Part shown: in pieces, positions 290 to 10,752 of the stretch | Layout: the number at the start of each line of letters is the position of its first letter | How positions within the stretch are numbered: position 1 is the first letter of the stretch | Notes under the pieces: model-generated | Databases searched by the model: none | Seen by the model: only the letters and a program-made list of their open reading frames with translations | What the model was told of the DNA's origin: nothing | Source: a virus | Length of the DNA: 37,956 nucleotides | Virus genome (UHGV): UHGV-0192057 | Strand: one strand, 5' to 3' | Made by a program: the position numbers and the translations under genes

Positions 290-1321
290 TTATGGGCAAA
301 ATCTGGACAACTCCGCAACCGGATTGAACCTTACCGCGTCCTGGAGATAATCAGGTGCAAAGTGCGCATAGGTCATTGTTTGCTGAATTGTGCTGTGCCC
401 TAAAATACGCTGAAGGGTAATAATGTTCCCTCCATTTATCATGAAATGAGTTGCGAATGTGTGCCGTAAAACATGCACAGACTGACCGACTGGTAAATCA
501 GGCCGCACAGTCCTTATTGCACTTCTGACTATCGCATAACTGGGGTTCATTAATCTTCCCGTCGCTTTGACTTTAATCAGAGATTCAAGATCTTTAGCTA
601 TAGGAATAACCCGCCGCGATCCATTCTTTGTCTCCATGAAAATAACCTTCCCACCAATTATGTGTTCACCTTTAATATTGGCAACTTCACCCCAGCGCCC
701 GCCTGTAGCCAGGCTTAACAATACAGCCTTAAGATTATCGCCAGATAAAAGTGCGGTTAGTCTGGGAATATCATCATGTGCAAGATAAGCCATTTCCGGC
801 TGATTAATTGTTAGCTTGCGTATCTCGTGAAACGGGTTATCACCCACAAACTCTTCAACATCAATCAGCTTTTCAAAGAAACCGCTCATCATTGCACAAT
901 AACGATTTACCGTTGACTGCTTAATTCCGCGATTCATTAATTCAAGGCGATATCTGATAATATTTTTTCGGGTTAAGTGGTCACTTCTGTTAATACCAAG
1001 CTCTTGCATATCACGAAGAACCGCTTCAATTCTGACCCGATTCATCGCGCCATAACGATGATTCTTACCGTGGTACACCCACCACAGTTCCAGAAGATCG
1101 CTTAACGCTTTACGTTCAATAGGTTTTTCGACCCAGTCCTTATCGTGATAATGCGTCAGAACATGGCGTTCATACATCGCCGCTTCACCACGGGTAGGAA
1201 ATCGCCGCCGAAATCTTCTTCCTTCAGATCCAGCAGGCCGCACGTCCACACAGTATTTGCCATCAGCGAGCTTCTTAATCGACATAAGGAAGCCCCCCAA
1301 TGAAAACATCATCTTGATCAC
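290..1321 (-). CDS. int: Tyrosine integrase, P2 Int family
   Basis: 343-aa ORF; C-terminal region with HxxR...Y-type recombinase signature (VLRHTFATHF...TMTYAHF); sits next to the att repeat and upstream of the C repressor as in P2. Confidence 0.93.
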   Translation of the reverse strand: MIKMMFSLGGFLMSIKKLADGKYCVDVRPAGSEGRRFRRRFPTRGEAAMYERHVLTHYHDKDWVEKPIERKALSDLLELWWVYHGKNHRYGAMNRVRIEAVLRDMQELGINRSDHLTRKNIIRYRLELMNRGIKQSTVNRYCAMMSGFFEKLIDVEEFVGDNPFHEIRKLTINQPEMAYLAHDDIPRLTALLSGDNLKAVLLSLATGGRWGEVANIKGEHIIGGKVIFMETKNGSRRVIPIAKDLESLIKVKATGRLMNPSYAIVRSAIRTVRPDLPVGQSVHVLRHTFATHFMINGGNIITLQRILGHSTIQQTMTYAHFAPDYLQDAVRFNPVAELSRFCP

Positions 1322-1351: not shown

Positions 1352-1645
1352 TTAACCAGTCTTCTTGCCGGAGTGGGGTGATTCCGATTCGCTTCGCCCA
1401 ATGTGTGCGAGAGCCGGTACCACCTGCCCGACCTTTGGTTCGACCTCATCGAACAAAAACCAGTCGCGGTATTTAGAAAATCTCGGGTGCTTAAAAAGCT
1501 TGATAGTGATCTCAAGACCAGGAAGGTTACGACCATACTCATAACTGGTCAGAGCAGAGTAAGAAATTCCAATCATATCAGCGAACTCCCGTTGAGTGAG
1601 ATCTTCAGATTTACGCATGACGCGAATTTTTTGAGGAATGTCCAT
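1352..1645 (-). CDS. Immunity repressor, P2 C-like
   Basis: 97 aa from the internal ATG at 1645 (MDIPQKIRVMRKSEDLTQREFADMIGISY...SPHSGKKTG); HTH; resembles P2 C from memory; divergent from cox. Confidence 0.8.
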   Translation of the reverse strand: MDIPQKIRVMRKSEDLTQREFADMIGISYSALTSYEYGRNLPGLEITIKLFKHPRFSKYRDWFLFDEVEPKVGQVVPALAHIGRSESESPHSGKKTG

Positions 1646-1658
1646 TTGACAAACTCCT

Positions 1659-3276: not shown

Positions 3277-3519
3277 ATGATCGAAGCCTACAAAATACTT
3301 ATTAATAACGCGTTGCAGCGTTACCACTTTGAACTCGCAAACAGGGGCGTAACTAAGGATGAAAGCCTTCGTAACTCACTGCGCGGCGCAATTATGGGAC
3401 TGTATAACTGCGCGCTGGGCAGCGATGACCGTGAAGCGCTGGAAGAATTAAAGTCGATTATGACAGAACTGTTTGAAGGTGAAATTGTCGAGCCTTACTT
3501 CACAGGAGTGGCAGCATGA
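3277..3519 (+). CDS. Hypothetical early-operon protein (80 aa)
   Basis: ORF tightly packed with neighbours; stop overlaps the next start (ATGA). Confidence 0.5.
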   Translation: MIEAYKILINNALQRYHFELANRGVTKDESLRNSLRGAIMGLYNCALGSDDREALEELKSIMTELFEGEIVEPYFTGVAA

Positions 3520-3641
3520 GCATATTCCTTTCATGGGTAATTCTGATTATCTCCGTGCTTATGGCAATCGGCATTATGCGAATTATCCACACACTGAAGG
3601 ATATCGAATTATTCTTTACCGGCGATAAACGCCGTAAATAA
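3516..3641 (+). CDS. Small hydrophobic protein (41 aa)
   Basis: Hand-translated MSIFLSWVILIISVLMAIGIMRIIHTLKDIELFFTGDKRRK; AGGAG upstream; ATGA overlap with the preceding gene; below the ORF-track length cutoff. Confidence 0.4.
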   Translation: MSIFLSWVILIISVLMAIGIMRIIHTLKDIELFFTGDKRRK

Positions 3642-3855
3642 AGCGAAAACCTTATGAAGAATGTAAAAGCAATACACACCATCGCCACTGTATGGGTGAT
3701 ATTTCAGGTGAGTGCGCTTATCTGGTTAGCCCTGAAGATCTGGGAATAACCTGAAGCCGAAAGCAGGCGCGGAATAACACCAGAAAACACACGAGCAATT
3801 AATTAAGGCATTCATGCCTTCGGGTTCCCTTTGTCTTTTTTTCAGGAGTCAACAA

Positions 3856-4086
3856 ATGAGAACAGCCGAATCACCCGGCAGAGAAATAGCCGCCAGACCA
3901 GCTAACCATCATGCACATATCAGCATGGCCGCAAGAAAAGCCGAGCGTGCACATATCTGCGAATTACTGCGCGAGCTGACTGAGACAGCGAAAGAGACAC
4001 ACACCTGTCCACAGGAAACCTGCGCAGCCATTGAACGACTGATTGCAATACTCGCCAACCCAGACGAACTGAAGGGGTGCGCATAA
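3856..4086 (+). CDS. Hypothetical early-operon protein (76 aa)
   Basis: ATG at 3856 with AGGAG 8 nt upstream (the track ORF starts earlier, at 3814); Cys/His-containing. Confidence 0.5.
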   Translation: MRTAESPGREIAARPANHHAHISMAARKAERAHICELLRELTETAKETHTCPQETCAAIERLIAILANPDELKGCA

Positions 4087-4667: not shown

Positions 4668-4900
4668 GGTGAAGCCATGGTCGCCATCCTGAATGTGTGT
4701 TGCTGCCCCCCCCTGAACGTGGAAAGAAAAGCCCGCGCATCGCTGCGTTTATTCCGCGACGGCGTGCGGAATTTTTCACGCATAAAACCCCACGACTACC
4801 TGGTAATAAGAATCGGTTTTCGCTGGCGATTGCTGAGCAAAAACAACGGGGCGTCATGGGATTTATTAACGCACGAAACCTATAACAAAGAGGCCGCGTT

Positions 4901-5881
4901 ATGAGCAAAGAACTGTTATCCGGTACGCCACTGAAATGGGTGGGCGGAAAAAGCCGCATCATGAACACACTGAAGGCGCATCTGCCAGAAGCAGACTGCC
5001 TGGTTGAGCCGTTTGTGGGTGGCGCATCGGTATTCATGAACACCAGTTACAAGCGTTACATCCTGGGTGATTCCAATGGTGCGCTGATTAATTTCTACCG
5101 GCAAGCCAGGGACAACACCGACAGCCTGATCGACGAGGCGAAAACCCTGTTCCTGAACCACAACAACAGGGGTGACTATCTCATCATTCGCGAAACCTTT
5201 AACGCAGAGAATCATGCCTTCCTGAACAGCAGAACGGGAATAAGCGACCGCCGTGAACTGCGACTGGCCGCCATGTTTTTGTACCTGAACCGACACAGCT
5301 TTAACGGTTTGTTCCGCGTGAACGGAAAAGGCGATTTTAACGTGCCTTTCGGCTGCTACCGCAAGCCCTACTTCCCTGAGCGGGAAATCCGCGCATTTGC
5401 AGACAAGGCAAACAGCACCCGAACGCTGCTTATCCACGCAGATTTTAAGGATACGCTGAACTCTGCCAGTCACCTGTTCGGCATGGGCAACACGCTTTGC
5501 GTGTACTGCGATCCCCCTTACCTGCGATTCAGTGGCCGGGACAATTTCACCGCCTACGGAAAACCATTCGATGAAGACGAGCACGTTCGTCTGAGGGCAG
5601 CGCTTGACCGCCTTTCACAGGAAACGGGCGGCATGACCAGCATCACCATCTCCAATTCCGACACACCGGAAACACGACGCATTTATCGGGGTTACCGGAT
5701 GAACTGCATACAGGCACCACGAAGCGTTGGCGCAAGAACCCGGGAATCAGCACCGGAGGTTATCGCCACCCTGAGACAGTGCGACGCCTGCGGTCACCAT
5801 GGCGGTGGCTACTGCCCGGACTGCGGACCTGTAACGGGAGATGCAACTTACAGCGTGATGTTTACCCCTGCCAGTACGTGA
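4901..5881 (+). CDS. dam: DNA adenine methyltransferase, Dam family (probable GATC N6-adenine MTase)
   Basis: Motifs PLKWVGGK, EPFVGGASVF (SAM binding), FLYLNRHSFNGLFRVN and catalytic DPPY (VYCDPPY); matches E. coli Dam from memory across the N-terminal two-thirds. Confidence 0.88.
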   Translation: MSKELLSGTPLKWVGGKSRIMNTLKAHLPEADCLVEPFVGGASVFMNTSYKRYILGDSNGALINFYRQARDNTDSLIDEAKTLFLNHNNRGDYLIIRETFNAENHAFLNSRTGISDRRELRLAAMFLYLNRHSFNGLFRVNGKGDFNVPFGCYRKPYFPEREIRAFADKANSTRTLLIHADFKDTLNSASHLFGMGNTLCVYCDPPYLRFSGRDNFTAYGKPFDEDEHVRLRAALDRLSQETGGMTSITISNSDTPETRRIYRGYRMNCIQAPRSVGARTRESAPEVIATLRQCDACGHHGGGYCPDCGPVTGDATYSVMFTPAST

Positions 5882-6153: not shown

Positions 6154-6368
6154 TCCAGGAATCAACCGTTATCCGGTTCACAGCCAACGGCCGTCAGTAC
6201 GAGGTAGACGAAAGCCTGATTGACCAGGGCATGACACGCCAGGACTCACGCAATTCTGAGATGCATCACATCCGCCTTATCAACGGTTCGCACTTCTGCG
6301 CCACGAACATGGAAGAAGTACGCGTGCTGACAGCAACACGCAATACGGGAGGTAAAGCATGGCAGTGA
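6150..6368 (+). CDS. Hypothetical protein (72 aa)
   Basis: ORF in the early block; start overlaps the previous stop. Confidence 0.45.
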   Translation: MIQESTVIRFTANGRQYEVDESLIDQGMTRQDSRNSEMHHIRLINGSHFCATNMEEVRVLTATRNTGGKAWQ

Positions 6369-6721
6369 TTTATATCGCCGGTCCAATGACCGGATACAAA
6401 GATCACAACAGAACGGCGTTTTTCACAGAGGCGATGAGGCTCGCGGCAGACGGGCACGTTGTGCTGAACCCTGCCACGTTGCCTGACGGATTAAGCCAGC
6501 AGCAGCACATGAGCATTTGTATTCCGATGCTCATGTGTGCCGATGTCATTTACTTGCTGGAAGGCTGGGAGGATTCAGCTGGCGCGCGGGCGGAGTACGC
6601 AATGGCACTCAAGCTGAACATAGACGTGTCATTACCGCCTGTCAGGGAAGACGGTAAAAGCATCACGCAGCCGGGAGTCGATCAGACGCCGCACAACCAG
6701 CAGATTAACCTTTCGGAGTAA
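6359..6721 (+). CDS. DUF4406-like / nucleoside 2-deoxyribosyltransferase-like protein
   Basis: N-terminal IYIAGPMTG motif typical of that fold; 120 aa. Confidence 0.55.
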   Translation: MAVIYIAGPMTGYKDHNRTAFFTEAMRLAADGHVVLNPATLPDGLSQQQHMSICIPMLMCADVIYLLEGWEDSAGARAEYAMALKLNIDVSLPPVREDGKSITQPGVDQTPHNQQINLSE

Positions 6722-7149
6722 CGCAAATGCTCGCTGGCAGACAGACCAACAGATGCGCTCGCTTTGTTTTTTGCGGGCCTGACAAACGCCTTCATGGATG
6801 CGCTGTTCGTTTCTTCCAGATACAGAATGCGCTCAATCAGGCGTTCAGTGCTCATGAAATCCCTTTGCGTAATCAGACGAAGGTAGCTCTGTTTCTGCCA
6901 GCACGCCAGTTCGGCGACGAATTCACACTTGCTGCAAAACCAGGAAAAAACAAAAAACGCCAGCCCCCAAAGGCTCATCAGGACGGGAAAACCAACCAGA
7001 AGAAAGGACAATACCGCAGCAATCAGCGCCCCGGCGCGCAACATGGCAGCGGCTTTATTGCTGAGTATGAAAACCATCTCTTCCAGCCAATAGCTGTACC
7101 ACAGATGAAAAAAAATCTTCTTGTCTGCTTGCTCCATAGCAACAGGCAT
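6682..7149 (-). CDS. Hypothetical membrane protein (antisense cargo gene)
   Basis: 155 aa from ATG at 7149 with GGAGG 6 nt upstream; hydrophobic hairpin AGALIAAVLSFLLVGFPVLMSLWGLAFFVFSWF; its 3' end overlaps the end of the DUF4406 gene. Confidence 0.6.
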   Translation of the reverse strand: MPVAMEQADKKIFFHLWYSYWLEEMVFILSNKAAAMLRAGALIAAVLSFLLVGFPVLMSLWGLAFFVFSWFCSKCEFVAELACWQKQSYLRLITQRDFMSTERLIERILYLEETNSASMKAFVRPAKNKASASVGLSASEHLRYSERLICWLCGV

Positions 7150-7535
7150 AAACAACCTCCATTGTTAATAAACGCCGCTATCCCTCGGCGCATTCCATTT
7201 TTGCGCCGCGATTATACATACTTCAGCACGCAACACAAAAACCGCTTGCCAGCGCTCGTCGTGTCAGGTTACATTTCCGCTGCACCTCATAAAACGGGTG
7301 CCGGGTTTCGCAGCCTGCTGACAACCAAAGCGCACAACCGCGCCAGCGGTTTTTTTGTGCGTACTGTATTGCCACGTCTTTTTCGCGTCAGAATTATGGC
7401 GGGGCGTACGGGGCCGACTTCGGTCGGGCCGGGTTCTTTGGTTGCCGGTACTGCGAACCTCGTACACCTCGCCACCCACAGTTTCGCAGCTCTGGATGGT
7501 GAGTTTTCAAAACTTACAACCAAAGAGGCCACACC

Positions 7536-7757
7536 ATGGCAAACCGCAAGCAACAGCGCGCCCGCGCTGAGCGTCTTCACATCCGCAGCGAAATCAACCG
7601 CAGACTCCATCGGGCTGCATCTGTCGCCTTTATCATGCAGTCAAACGTATTACACCGACTTAACGACGGTATCGCTGCCGGGTATTACGCGGCAGTCTTC
7701 AGCTATCTCGCCGAAGATCTGGCAGAACTACAAAGCCTCATCAACCAGCACCGATAA
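7536..7757 (+). CDS. Hypothetical small basic protein (73 aa)
   Basis: ATG with AGAGG upstream; Arg-rich N-terminus; first plus-strand ORF after the structured gap. Confidence 0.4.
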   Translation: MANRKQQRARAERLHIRSEINRRLHRAASVAFIMQSNVLHRLNDGIAAGYYAAVFSYLAEDLAELQSLINQHR

Positions 7758-7825
7758 ACCACATCCTGAAGCCATCCCGCACCCGTGCGCGGGAGGCTTC
7801 CGCACGTCTGTTACCGGAGGTTCTC

Positions 7826-8242
7826 ATGAAGAGCGTTAAGGGACTTTCAGATATTCAGGACTTTTTTAACTGGATGTGGGCGGTGGATCCCCTGCTGGCT
7901 TCCCGCCTGAACAACTGGCACGACTACTACCGCCGCGCCTGTAAACAGGCCGCCCGCAGCATCACCACATACGGGGATTTCTCCTTCACCGTTGACGGTC
8001 GTTACCGCGTGGACGTGAAAGGTGACGGTGATGGCTTTGGTTTATTTCACATCAACGGCACCGACAGTACCGCCATCAGCTGGTCATCGTCAGAGATGGC
8101 ACTGGTTCTGGAAATGACAACCCACAGCGTGGCCGTGAAAGGCATATACACCGCAGAAGACTTTATCGGTGAATACCAGCGCCTTCTCGTGCTGTACCGC
8201 GCGGCGTTTCAGGAGGTCACTGGCGGGGAGTACGACGCATGA
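7826..8242 (+). CDS. Hypothetical protein upstream of A (138 aa)
   Basis: ORF whose stop overlaps the A start. Confidence 0.55.
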   Translation: MKSVKGLSDIQDFFNWMWAVDPLLASRLNNWHDYYRRACKQAARSITTYGDFSFTVDGRYRVDVKGDGDGFGLFHINGTDSTAISWSSSEMALVLEMTTHSVAVKGIYTAEDFIGEYQRLLVLYRAAFQEVTGGEYDA

Positions 8243-10752
8243 GTGACCGCAATGCACAGCTGGCGTACCCGTGGAACGCACCGCTACCGGTTATCGATCC
8301 TGAAACGTTCGGCAGAGCACAACCAACCGCATTACGCCAGGCCATTCAGAGCTACATCAACGAGGACATTCGCATTGATGCCAGACTGGATGAAGAAACC
8401 GTCTCCTTCCTGACAAACACAGACGAAGGCAAGCGAATTAATTCGCATCTTCACCACGACGAAGAGCGTCGGGTCAGACTGGAAAAACTGGCGAAGCACA
8501 AACGCGAGAATCCGCCCACGGTGGTATCTGAAGCCATGGCAGAGCTGCGCGCCCTGCCGCCGTTTCTTGCCAGTCCGCTCATCCGGGACCTGGCTCGCCT
8601 GAGCCGCAAACAGGAGAGCGCACGCCGGGAAGGGCTTAAGAATAACAGCGCATATGCGGCGGATAACTTCGTTCGTCATGGGCTGCGTGCCCGCCTGAAA
8701 CGTATCGCCCGTGTGAATGAACGCTTTGCCACCCCGGCCTTTAAGGCCACCGCCGCCCGCGAACGGCTGGATGAACTGCTTATACTGCCGCAGCTGAGCC
8801 GTGACGAAATCCAGCGCCTTGCCACCCTGACCGCCACCGCGTTTTCCGCCGCACTGGAGCGCGCATGTGATGAGATCATCGAAAAGACCGGCAGGGGTGA
8901 CGATGACCTGTTCACCTGGTTACTGACCTACCAGTCACTGGCACACATGGCGTTAAAACTGGGTATCACGCCACCCTGCTGGCCGTCGCTGGAAATCAGG
9001 CCAGACCGCCGCACCGCCCCCAACCCGGAACGGGTGCCGGGTGCGGTCATGCGCCTTTCCTGTGCGACATGGTGGAACAGTCAGTTAAGACACCTCCGGG
9101 ACATCTGGCGTGAAGAGCTGTTACGCGCCGCAGGTCTGGTGTCACGTAAGACATCGGTATATATCAGCCATGAAGCGTTACTGGACTGGCGCGAAAAACG
9201 CCAGCGCACCCGCGATTTTCTGAAGGCCTGGGACATCGAGAACGAAGAGGGAGAACGGCTCAGCCTTGAGGATATCTACTGGGCAGGTCTCTCTAATCCG
9301 CGTAACCGCCGTAACGAGATGATGACCTGCGCCCGGGGAATGGAGCAGGTCGCCGAAGCACGCGGCGATGTGGCGTTTTTCGTCACCGTCACAGCCCCTT
9401 CCCGTTTTCACAGCGTGAACGATGACGGCAGTCTGAACCCGAAATACTGCGGGGCAACGGTACGCGATGCCAGTGATTATCTGGTTTACCGCTTTTTCGC
9501 CGCCGTCCGCAGGGCCATCGACAAGGCCGGGCTGGGCTGGTACGGCGTGCGCACAGTGGAGCCCCACCACGACGGTACACCGCACTGGCACATGCTGGTA
9601 TTCACCAGCCAGGAAAACGAAGCCCGTATCACTGAAATCATGCGCAACGCCGCCATCAGGGAGGACCGCGCAGAGCTGGGTGATGATATCTCCCCGCGTT
9701 TTAAATGCGAAAAAATCGACCCGGCAAAAGGCACACCGACAAGCTATATCGCGACCTATATCGGTAAGAACCTGGACGCCAGCGCCTTCATGGGAAATGA
9801 CCCGAAAACCGGCAAACCTTACGTCGATAAGGAATCAGGCAAAACCATGGCCGAAACCGTGGAGAACGCCATCGGCTGGGCAGGCCTTCACCGCATCCAC
9901 CAGTTCCAGTTCTTCGGTATCCCGCCCCGCCAGGTATGGCGCGAACTCCGCAGCCTTGCCGGGCAGATGGCCCGTAACCCGACTGCCCCACAGCGTCTGG
10001 ACCATGACGACATTGACGCCATACTGGCCGCCGCCGACGTGGGATGTTTTGCCACCTATATCACCCGCCAGGGTGGTGTGCTCATTCCCCGCAACACGTA
10101 CCTGGTCCGCACCGCATACGAAACTGCCGAAGAGGCCAACGACTACGGCGAATTCCCGCAACGCATTTACGGCGTCCGCGCCCCGTTACTCGGGGAGCGC
10201 TACACCATATGCACCCACCCGGACACCTGGAAACTGGTCAGACGTAAGCCGGAAAACGAAGACCGCACGGACGAGGGTTTTGACGTTGAGTGCGGCTTTG
10301 CCGCACCTTGGACTCGTGGCAATAACTGTCCCCATGATGAAAAAACAGACACCGGAGAGGGTAAAACCCCACCACCGGAAACCAGGAAAGAACAAAAACT
10401 GGTCGTCCCGGGAGGTGATTTGGGTGAGTGGTTAAGGTCACTGACCCCCACAGAGCGAAAACAACTCACCAGGCAGCTGAAAGATGCGCCATCTGACACA
10501 AAAACCGTGAAAACCGGCGGCCCCACCACGCCCGATGACGTCATACATGTGCGTACAGCATTGCCGCTGACTGACGTCACCACCACCGTAATCAAGTCGG
10601 CACTGAGCGCGACGGGCGAGGAGCTACACAGTGGCGCAGCACTTTCCGTACACAGAGGTGCACGCGTTCGCCTGCCTGACGGGCGGATTGTGCACTGGGA
10701 TGAGAAATCACGAAGCCTGGTGGCAGCAGATCAACCGGAGGTGAACCCATGA
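8239..10752 (+). CDS. A: Replication initiation protein A (rolling-circle endonuclease)
   Basis: 837-aa ORF at the P2 A position; active-site-like segment HHDGTPHWHMLVF...YIATYIGKNL (tyrosines near a His cluster). Confidence 0.9.
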   Translation: MSDRNAQLAYPWNAPLPVIDPETFGRAQPTALRQAIQSYINEDIRIDARLDEETVSFLTNTDEGKRINSHLHHDEERRVRLEKLAKHKRENPPTVVSEAMAELRALPPFLASPLIRDLARLSRKQESARREGLKNNSAYAADNFVRHGLRARLKRIARVNERFATPAFKATAARERLDELLILPQLSRDEIQRLATLTATAFSAALERACDEIIEKTGRGDDDLFTWLLTYQSLAHMALKLGITPPCWPSLEIRPDRRTAPNPERVPGAVMRLSCATWWNSQLRHLRDIWREELLRAAGLVSRKTSVYISHEALLDWREKRQRTRDFLKAWDIENEEGERLSLEDIYWAGLSNPRNRRNEMMTCARGMEQVAEARGDVAFFVTVTAPSRFHSVNDDGSLNPKYCGATVRDASDYLVYRFFAAVRRAIDKAGLGWYGVRTVEPHHDGTPHWHMLVFTSQENEARITEIMRNAAIREDRAELGDDISPRFKCEKIDPAKGTPTSYIATYIGKNLDASAFMGNDPKTGKPYVDKESGKTMAETVENAIGWAGLHRIHQFQFFGIPPRQVWRELRSLAGQMARNPTAPQRLDHDDIDAILAAADVGCFATYITRQGGVLIPRNTYLVRTAYETAEEANDYGEFPQRIYGVRAPLLGERYTICTHPDTWKLVRRKPENEDRTDEGFDVECGFAAPWTRGNNCPHDEKTDTGEGKTPPPETRKEQKLVVPGGDLGEWLRSLTPTERKQLTRQLKDAPSDTKTVKTGGPTTPDDVIHVRTALPLTDVTTTVIKSALSATGEELHSGAALSVHRGARVRLPDGRIVHWDEKSRSLVAADQPEVNP

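Follow-up and report, generated by a model that had tools for sequence, protein, structure and literature searches.

A predicted IsrK and C4 antisense RNA switch ahead of the replication gene of a P88-like P2-family prophage

The window analysed here, the whole 37,956-nucleotide (nt) stretch of UHGV virus genome UHGV-0192057, represents a prophage of the P2 family that falls in the P88-like group (Peduoviridae, Xuanwuvirus). We found that positions 7233-7535 on its + strand, between the early operon and the replication gene gpA, most likely (roughly 80%) constitute a switch of the P4/P1 type, in which an IsrK leader and a C4/CI antisense RNA gate an epsilon-like gene and gpA. The element is recognizable from its RNA family membership and structure, four complementarities, co-variation among homologues, overlap of one target with a Shine-Dalgarno (SD) sequence, gene order and homology to the P4 immunity region. 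The stretch 7150-7535, which the original prediction had joined to the neighboring minus-strand gene for a membrane protein as one module, is composite, with ~80 bp belonging to the cassette of that gene and ~300 bp to the RNA switch.

Anatomy of the RNA module and of the genes behind it

Two Rfam families, IsrK and C4, match the region on the + strand above their gathering thresholds (Table 1), and these are the sole gathering-level matches in the whole window; a further match to c4-a1b1 (RF03163, 'a1, b1 targets of C4') at 7269-7321 is sub-threshold. The module opens with a promoter that aligns column for column with P4 PLE and is kept in all P88-like homologues, with a predicted transcription start at ~7282. 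The leader that follows forms two hairpins and an intrinsic terminator (7336-7351) succeeded by a run of seven T to 7358. This is the terminator-like hairpin with T7 run (7336-7358) that had been noticed from the letters alone, and as the terminator of an IsrK-type leader it does punctuate the early operon. The stable ggccgac-ttcg-gtcgg hairpin near 7412-7432, likewise noticed before, is helix 2 of C4, an RNA with a 17-bp closing stem around two hairpins and a 3′ tail, CCACCC, that resembles the family consensus. The presumption of a regulatory RNA or leader thus stands insofar as the region carries regulatory RNAs with a promoter of their own; its other half, that they serve the minus-strand gene, does not, because they lie on the + strand and are predicted to regulate the downstream + genes, namely the epsilon-like gene, orf138 and gpA.

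The C4 RNA displays two recognition elements, each with a target upstream and a target downstream. By k-mer search, loop b′ is an exact complement of b1 over 9 nt and of b2 over 10 nt, and element a′ is an exact complement of a1 and a2 over 7 nt each. Target b2 overlaps the SD AAGAGG (7523-7528) of the epsilon-like gene, the ATG of which is at 7536. Hence, the RNA is assigned to C4 by a score above gathering, stems with compensatory changes (see below), a′ and b′ with four targets and b2 on the ribosome-binding site, and the leader to IsrK/seqA by a score above gathering, two hairpins with a terminator, a position upstream of C4 and its own promoter.

The first gene behind the module encodes a 73-residue protein that matches phrog_3688 and that PGAP names 'derepression protein' in the closest relative of the window (locus L003). 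It shares 34% identity over 50 amino acids (aa) with P4 epsilon (BLASTP, pairwise E 1e-8) and scores 27.9 bits on Pfam PF25738 ('Derepression'), marginal against a gathering threshold of 27, while P4 epsilon itself scores 170 bits. A homologue of the P2 C repressor is encoded in the same prophage, and the 73-aa protein may act as an anti-repressor against it. The next gene, orf138, is a conserved one that lies behind the derepression gene and ahead of gpA in P88 as well as in Shae_phiSM and E. coli prophages; we considered it as an equivalent of P4 orf151 and rejected this for want of any similarity. Between the derepression gene and orf138, a spacer of 68 nt (7758-7825) holds a GC-rich inverted repeat (CCCGCAC..GTGCGCGGG) without a T run, which could be relevant to the premature termination predicted below.

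Table 1. Features of the window discussed in the text, in order of position.
Feature	Position	Strand	Description
Integrase	290-1321	-	
P2 C-type repressor	1352-1648	-	E 7e-27 to P2 C structures PDB 2XCJ/2L49
Cox-like gene	left end of window, after repressor		
Early operon		+	DUF4761, DUF4754, 3′-5′ exonuclease, ParE-like open reading frame (ORF), Dam methylase, two small ORFs, DUF4406 gene
DUF4406 gene	6359-6721	+	last early-operon gene before the region in question
Gene for 155-aa helical-hairpin membrane protein	6682-7149	-	phrog_6315 (function unknown); ORF with SD, profile match
5′ untranslated region (5′UTR) and putative promoter of membrane-protein gene	7150-7232	-	assigned to the cassette, outside the RNA module
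Sigma-70 promoter, P4 PLE equivalent	7246-7275	+	-35 TTGCCA, 18-nt spacer, -10 TACATT; promoter scan
IsrK / P4 seqA-type leader RNA	7282-7356	+	Rfam RF01394, 65.9 bits vs gathering 50
Target a1	7307-7313	+	TTCGCAG, loop of IsrK hairpin 2
Target b1	7322-7330	+	CAACCAAAG, linker of IsrK leader
C4 / P4 CI-type antisense RNA	7392-7479	+	Rfam RF01695, 80.8 bits vs gathering 45, full-length 1-87 of 87
C4 recognition loop b′	7435-7444	+	TCTTTGGTTG
C4 element a′	7451-7457	+	CTGCGAA
Target a2	7483-7489	+	TTCGCAG
Target b2	7517-7526	+	CAACCAAAGA
73-aa homologue of P4 epsilon 'derepression' (anti-repressor) protein	7536-7757	+	first gene predicted to be gated by C4
orf138, 138-aa protein of unknown function	7826-8242	+	phrog_3237; stop overlaps gpA start (ATGA 8239-8242)
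gpA replication endonuclease	8239-10752	+	Pfam PF05840, 354 bits; last gene behind the predicted RNA gate

Homologues and related immunity systems

We compared 43 distinct homologous regions from E. coli prophages, P88, Shae_phiSM, P4 and IMG/VR contigs, the last of these found by a degenerate C4 pattern scan (a contig scan with the 73-aa protein gave 2 loci). Pairing holds in 99.6% of cells of the C4 stems, and 11 of the 27 pairs show compensatory double changes, a level reached by 0/500 shuffles and set against 33-45% in slid controls; the IsrK stems reach 98% pairing across 20 homologues and vary little. The recognition elements are hypervariable, with 15 b′ loops and 10 a′ elements among the 43 regions. 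Every variant can form, with each of its own two targets, an uninterrupted run of 8 or more pairs (b) or 7 or more (a), against an average of ~5 contiguous pairs with targets of a different loop type. The closest relative (L003, E. coli JNEC-KY204), which is 98% identical over 2.4 kb, captures such a change of specificity: within 7233-7600 it has 10 differences from the window, six of them coordinated at 7323/7325 (b1), 7441/7443 (b′) and 7518/7520 (b2), such that the b specificity reads CAACCAAAG in the window and CTAGCAAAG in the relative. From the sequences, we take this loop/target co-variation to be the signature of a working antisense system that is selected for new specificities, as the pair P1 and P7 exemplifies. 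Two substitutions in the window's C4, at 7466-7467 (G>A, T>C), are private, being found in 0/42 other homologues.

The module is present in 1283 of 5426 complete E. coli genomes (about a quarter) and in P88-like phages, and it occurs without the membrane-protein gene in P88, Shae_phiSM, two further comparison loci (L005 and L006) and ~1270 E. coli genomes. The gene order RNAs, derepression gene, hypothetical gene and gpA is common to P88, Citrobacter phage Shae_phiSM and many E. coli prophages. The RNA module is a conserved core element of the P88-like (Xuanwuvirus) P2-family phages, with or without the membrane gene.

The nearest counterpart is the P4 immunity region, which comprises the PLE promoter, the seqA leader, the CI RNA (seqB) and seqC, followed by kil, epsilon, orf151, cnr and alpha. 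On P4, Rfam recovers IsrK (8615-8692), c4-a1b1 and C4 (8420-8507, the CI RNA, 74.9 bits), and then comes epsilon. The window shares with it this Rfam trio in the same order and spacing, an alignable promoter, two recognition elements with upstream and downstream targets, a downstream b site placed on an SD, and an epsilon-family gene followed by the replication initiator of the element itself. It differs in being a complete P2-family phage of the helper type, whereas P4 is a satellite; in having the epsilon homologue as first gated gene, without kil; in its replication gene (the rolling-circle endonuclease gpA versus the alpha primase of P4); in an orf138 unrelated to orf151; in a DNA identity of only ~70%; and in possessing the P2 C/Cox protein switch as well. 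IsrK corresponds to the P4 seqA leader and C4 to the CI RNA (PMC3632133), and P4 CI pairs with seqA and seqC, terminating transcription of the replication genes (PMC4825925). The IsrK-C4 immunity system has been described in P4, P1, P7, N15 and lambdoid prophages (PMC3632133; PMC4825925); in the searchable literature, we found no description of C4 or IsrK in P2-like, Peduoviridae or P88 phages.

Comparable features link the window to two more systems. With the immI region of P1 and P7 (c4, a1/b1, a2/b2, icd, ant), it shares the C4 family and the duplicated targets (RF01695, RF03163), along with an occluded ribosome-binding site of the first downstream gene and a gated product that is an anti-repressor, which in the window is a prediction. 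The differences are that its downstream proteins are unrelated to Icd and Ant, that the genome context is another one and that a replication gene also lies downstream. Loop variation defines hetero-immunity between P1 and P7, a parallel to the 15 b′ and 10 a′ variants of the window's group. The isrK-orf45-anrP locus of Salmonella Gifsy-1 likewise has an IsrK-family leader that is served by its own promoter and whose terminator is leaky; downstream of it are a stable RNA that arises by processing (STnc1160) and an anti-repressor product, and a short IsrK acts in trans (PMC4825925). There, the short IsrK activates translation of the read-through transcript, and Hfq binding and trans-activation by IsrK have been experimentally shown for Gifsy-1 only (PMC4825925). 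Gifsy-1 differs from the window in being a lambdoid prophage with an AnrP/AntQ cascade as output, in which the role of the C4-like RNA has not been dissected.

By homology with these systems, we posit that a constitutive PLE-like promoter, active in the lysogen, would start transcription near 7282 and that most transcripts would stop at the intrinsic terminator, giving a short IsrK/seqA leader bearing a1 and b1. Read-through transcripts would contain the C4/CI RNA, which, by analogy to P1 and P4, would be excised by RNase P and 3′ trimming and then pair through b′ and a′ with b2 and a2 just downstream. Pairing at b2, which lies across the ribosome-binding site of the epsilon-like gene, would hide this site and block translation; the untranslated RNA would be terminated prematurely, as in P4 and P1, and as a result the anti-repressor, orf138 and gpA would stay off both in the lysogen and in a superinfecting phage whose RNA specificity is the same. 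The leader's copy of a1/b1 may serve as a second upstream target or as a decoy that tunes the threshold of the switch, like P4 seqA and Gifsy-1 IsrK. On the same analogies, the RNA switch would add an immunity layer to the C/Cox protein switch. To our knowledge, P2 itself is without such an RNA layer.

The membrane-protein cassette and alternative readings

On the opposite strand, the ORF for a hydrophobic-hairpin protein of 155 residues, with a strong ribosome-binding site and an overlap with the 3′ end of the preceding gene, is borne out as originally predicted. Its SD is GGAGG at 7156-7160 (complement), 6 nt ahead of the ATG, and it overlaps the DUF4406 gene convergently by 40 bp. Residues ~39-72 have Kyte-Doolittle values >2 with a G-F-P turn, and an AlphaFold2 model (pLDDT 84) displays a long helical hairpin with a hydrophobic tip and three short helices. 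The protein matches its phrog family with E 5.6e-28, and the same slot of another prophage (L004), between flanks that are 93-98% identical, contains an allele of 37% amino-acid identity that aligns free of gaps; accordingly, we consider the ORF a real gene. A full HMMER scan of 1.84 billion proteins yielded just 11 representatives at E<=1e-3, which marks a small family; its members are ~150-160 aa long with conserved motifs. A word-indexed homologue search returned close relatives only, and searches of Pfam, NCBIfam and PADLOC gave no match; having no Pfam or PADLOC family match, the protein is not placed among known anti-phage defenses or SLATT-type effectors with two transmembrane segments (2TM).

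The stretch 7150-7232 is likely the promoter region of this gene, as a perfect -10 box, TATAAT, can be read at 7211-7216 along with a weak -35; the promoter scan did not call it. A locus with a different upstream gene (L131) matches the window over 6682-7300, from exactly the stop codon of the membrane gene; homology to module-only phages (P88, L005) begins at 7233; and the divergent allele of L004 spans 6672-7219, with homology resuming at 7220. From these boundaries at 6682 and 7219/7233, we delimit the cassette as 6682-~7232, with its own 5′UTR and TATAAT box. The window's allele occurs in 12 of the 5426 complete E. coli genomes, and lone antisense homologues of the gene are found in two elements that have neither IsrK nor C4, a Mu-like prophage and a Yersinia Firavirus. 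By its sequence relationships, 6682-~7232 is best described as an autonomous cargo cassette (a 'moron') of an uncharacterised protein family, independent of the RNA switch. Because it runs against the early operon, the membrane gene is most likely expressed from the prophage, and our best guess is that its product is a membrane-acting protein of the superinfection-exclusion or abortive-infection type. The cassette resembles morons such as P2 old/tin/fun and lambda sieB/rexB in that a single gene with a promoter of its own is oriented against the phage operons or placed outside them, is patchily distributed, has strongly divergent alleles and is found in unrelated temperate phages; it differs in that the protein lacks sequence or profile similarity to old/tin/fun, sieB/rexB or any PADLOC model.

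The slot just upstream of the PLE-like promoter (window 7233 and its equivalents in L001, L002, L005, L006 and L131) is variable among P88-like prophages. It may hold the membrane-protein cassette, DUF4406 with the cassette, a MarR-like gene with the cassette, a lipoprotein/serine protease (P88), a DNA-binding protein (Shae_phiSM, L006) or nothing (L005). In Yersinia phage vB_YenM_42.18 (L130), the strand opposite the annotated 221-aa gp08 (3303-3968, -) encodes, at 3501-3944 (+ in the locus), a homologue that covers the full length of the membrane protein and keeps the residues conserved in its family; the gp08 annotation is probably on the wrong strand.

With both elements delimited, the alternatives to an IsrK-C4 switch can be weighed. 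That the structured 380 bp are a leader or regulatory RNA of the membrane gene, the two forming a single inserted module, would be in keeping with the back-to-back arrangement of their promoter regions, ~30 bp apart, and with the gene always adjoining the module in those P88-like prophages that carry it. Yet the two RNAs are encoded on the other strand and read away from the gene, the C4 targets lie in the + mRNA that carries the downstream gene, and complementarity to C4 or IsrK elements in 6500-7232 amounts to none beyond one 7-mer. Moreover, a recombination boundary (7219-7233) falls between gene and module, and each occurs without the other, the module in the phages, loci and E. coli genomes listed above and the gene in Mu-like and Yersinia phages. 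This reading is therefore exceedingly improbable. The single module originally proposed gives way to two adjacent independent features on the evidence of the boundaries, the 12 versus 1283 genomes and the homologues without C4. Of the notion of an insertion, the part concerning 6682-~7232 survives, as this behaves as an inserted cassette, and the RNA part is conserved core rather than insert. The earlier judgment that a retron is unlikely was sound, and we reject that candidate: the neighboring ORFs scanned are without a reverse transcriptase (RT) domain, and Rfam gave no msr/msd match.

Several points weigh against the switch itself. Lytic transcription from Pe would have to pass the IsrK terminator to express gpA; regulation by the module in the P88-like lineage is extrapolated from P4, P1 and Gifsy-1; the epsilon-family assignment is barely over threshold; and the window's C4 has a private C.A mismatch (7405/7466) in its closing stem, next to a substitution that turns the neighboring G.U into G-C. 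Furthermore, one + frame is stop-free in 41/43 homologues, and databases carry an 'Ash' family over the RNA region. This raises the alternative that the region encodes a protein (the 'Ash family' or P4 'cI ORF' frame, within a 370-aa + ORF at 6727-7839) rather than RNAs, which the match of Pfam PF10554 (Phage_ASH) to the P4 ORF overlying the CI RNA and the PGAP label 'ash family protein' over the region in some genomes would favor. Against it, variable sites distribute over the three phases as 50/84, 46/85 and 52/85, without a third-position excess, while substitutions are compensatory in the RNA stems and occur in step in the loops and their targets; past the promoter, the frame offers no plausible start or SD except an AUG inside the C4 stem; it overlaps the entire epsilon-like gene out of frame; and the P4 immunity factor is the processed CI RNA (PMC4825925; PMC3632133). 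Thus, we find this alternative very unlikely and reject a protein-coding Ash frame over 7280-7535, the lack of codon-position bias also agreeing with the original view that 7150-7535 holds no convincing ORF, and RNA covariation explaining the conservation. A conserved protein gene is absent from 7150-7535. Little credence is likewise due to the idea that the IsrK-C4 segment came into the prophage by recombination from a P4-like satellite and persists as an inert relic without function for this phage. It shares ~71% DNA identity with P4-like elements over ~250 nt, and epsilon is best known from P4; against this, the segment keeps a constant position ahead of the derepression gene, orf138 and gpA in the whole phage genus and the 1283 E. 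coli genomes, and b2 is tailored to the SD of the epsilon-like gene particular to this lineage, changing in concert with b′ and b1 among the P88-like members themselves, which requires ongoing selection.

Prophage context, annotation and significance

Elsewhere in the window, there is a second lone gene antisense to the early operon (2267-2707, -), which encodes a protein of ~145 aa (phrog_2266, unknown function), lies within AT-rich DNA that separates the cox-like gene from DUF4761, and is probably another moron. The early operon also contains, between the exonuclease and Dam genes, an ORF with a ParE-like toxin domain (4677-4904, +; PF24732, 64 bits). ARAGORN detected no tRNA or tmRNA.

The annotation of the RNA genes across homologues is beset with phantom genes. 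In the window, a stop-free frame of 370 codons (6727-7839, +) extends antisense through the membrane gene, crosses the two RNAs and passes through the derepression gene in a different frame, and in three loci (L131, L133, L134) gene callers predict a 213-aa ORF in place of a 76-aa derepression gene. The PF10554 match in P4 is to the 'cI ORF' covering the CI RNA (L007, 8168-8584), and PGAP places an 'ash family protein' pseudogene over IsrK/C4 in L006 (2503-2890). In addition, P88 gp13 (L001, 5033-5221) and an E. coli coding sequence (CDS; L004, 2883-3071) are 62-aa minus-strand calls atop the RNAs. A published survey of P4 satellites took PF10554 as an epsilon marker (PMC8628076). A stretch that pipelines leave blank or mis-call, whether as an 'ash family protein' pseudogene, 62-aa minus-strand CDSs or phantom ORFs of 213-370 aa, should carry two RNA genes.

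The RNA families, the architecture and the logic of the system are already known, and curated thresholds suffice to detect the copies in the window. What is new is the context, namely a P4-type immunity/epsilon cassette ahead of gpA in a helper-type P2-family phage, and the breadth of specificity variants. We also considered whether P88-like helpers and P4-like satellites share one RNA 'barcode' immunity system under diversifying selection, which we regard as unlikely, though less so than the alternatives dismissed above. If true, C4/CI RNAs of helpers and satellites could silence each other's replication operons (gpA and alpha, respectively) when their specificities coincide, adding an RNA-level layer to helper-satellite conflict; the hypervariable loops would be the footprint of an arms race; and the epsilon and CI immunity of P4 would have been borrowed from, or exchanged with, the helper lineage. 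Among the 43 regions, 0/920 helper-satellite combinations cross-match at both the a and b sites, which fits insulation as well as conflict.

The membrane-protein cassette is a candidate lysogenic-conversion or exclusion gene in its own right. As to the RNA module, its homology to the P4 immunity/derepression cassette bears on the exchange of regulatory parts between helpers and satellites, and its co-varying loop/target variants offer a natural series of orthogonal RNA regulators, from which immunity groups may be predictable from sequence. If the switch operates as we posit, a large and common lineage of P2-family prophages would carry, besides C/Cox, a second, RNA-based immunity layer that stands before both an epsilon-type anti-repressor and the replication initiator.

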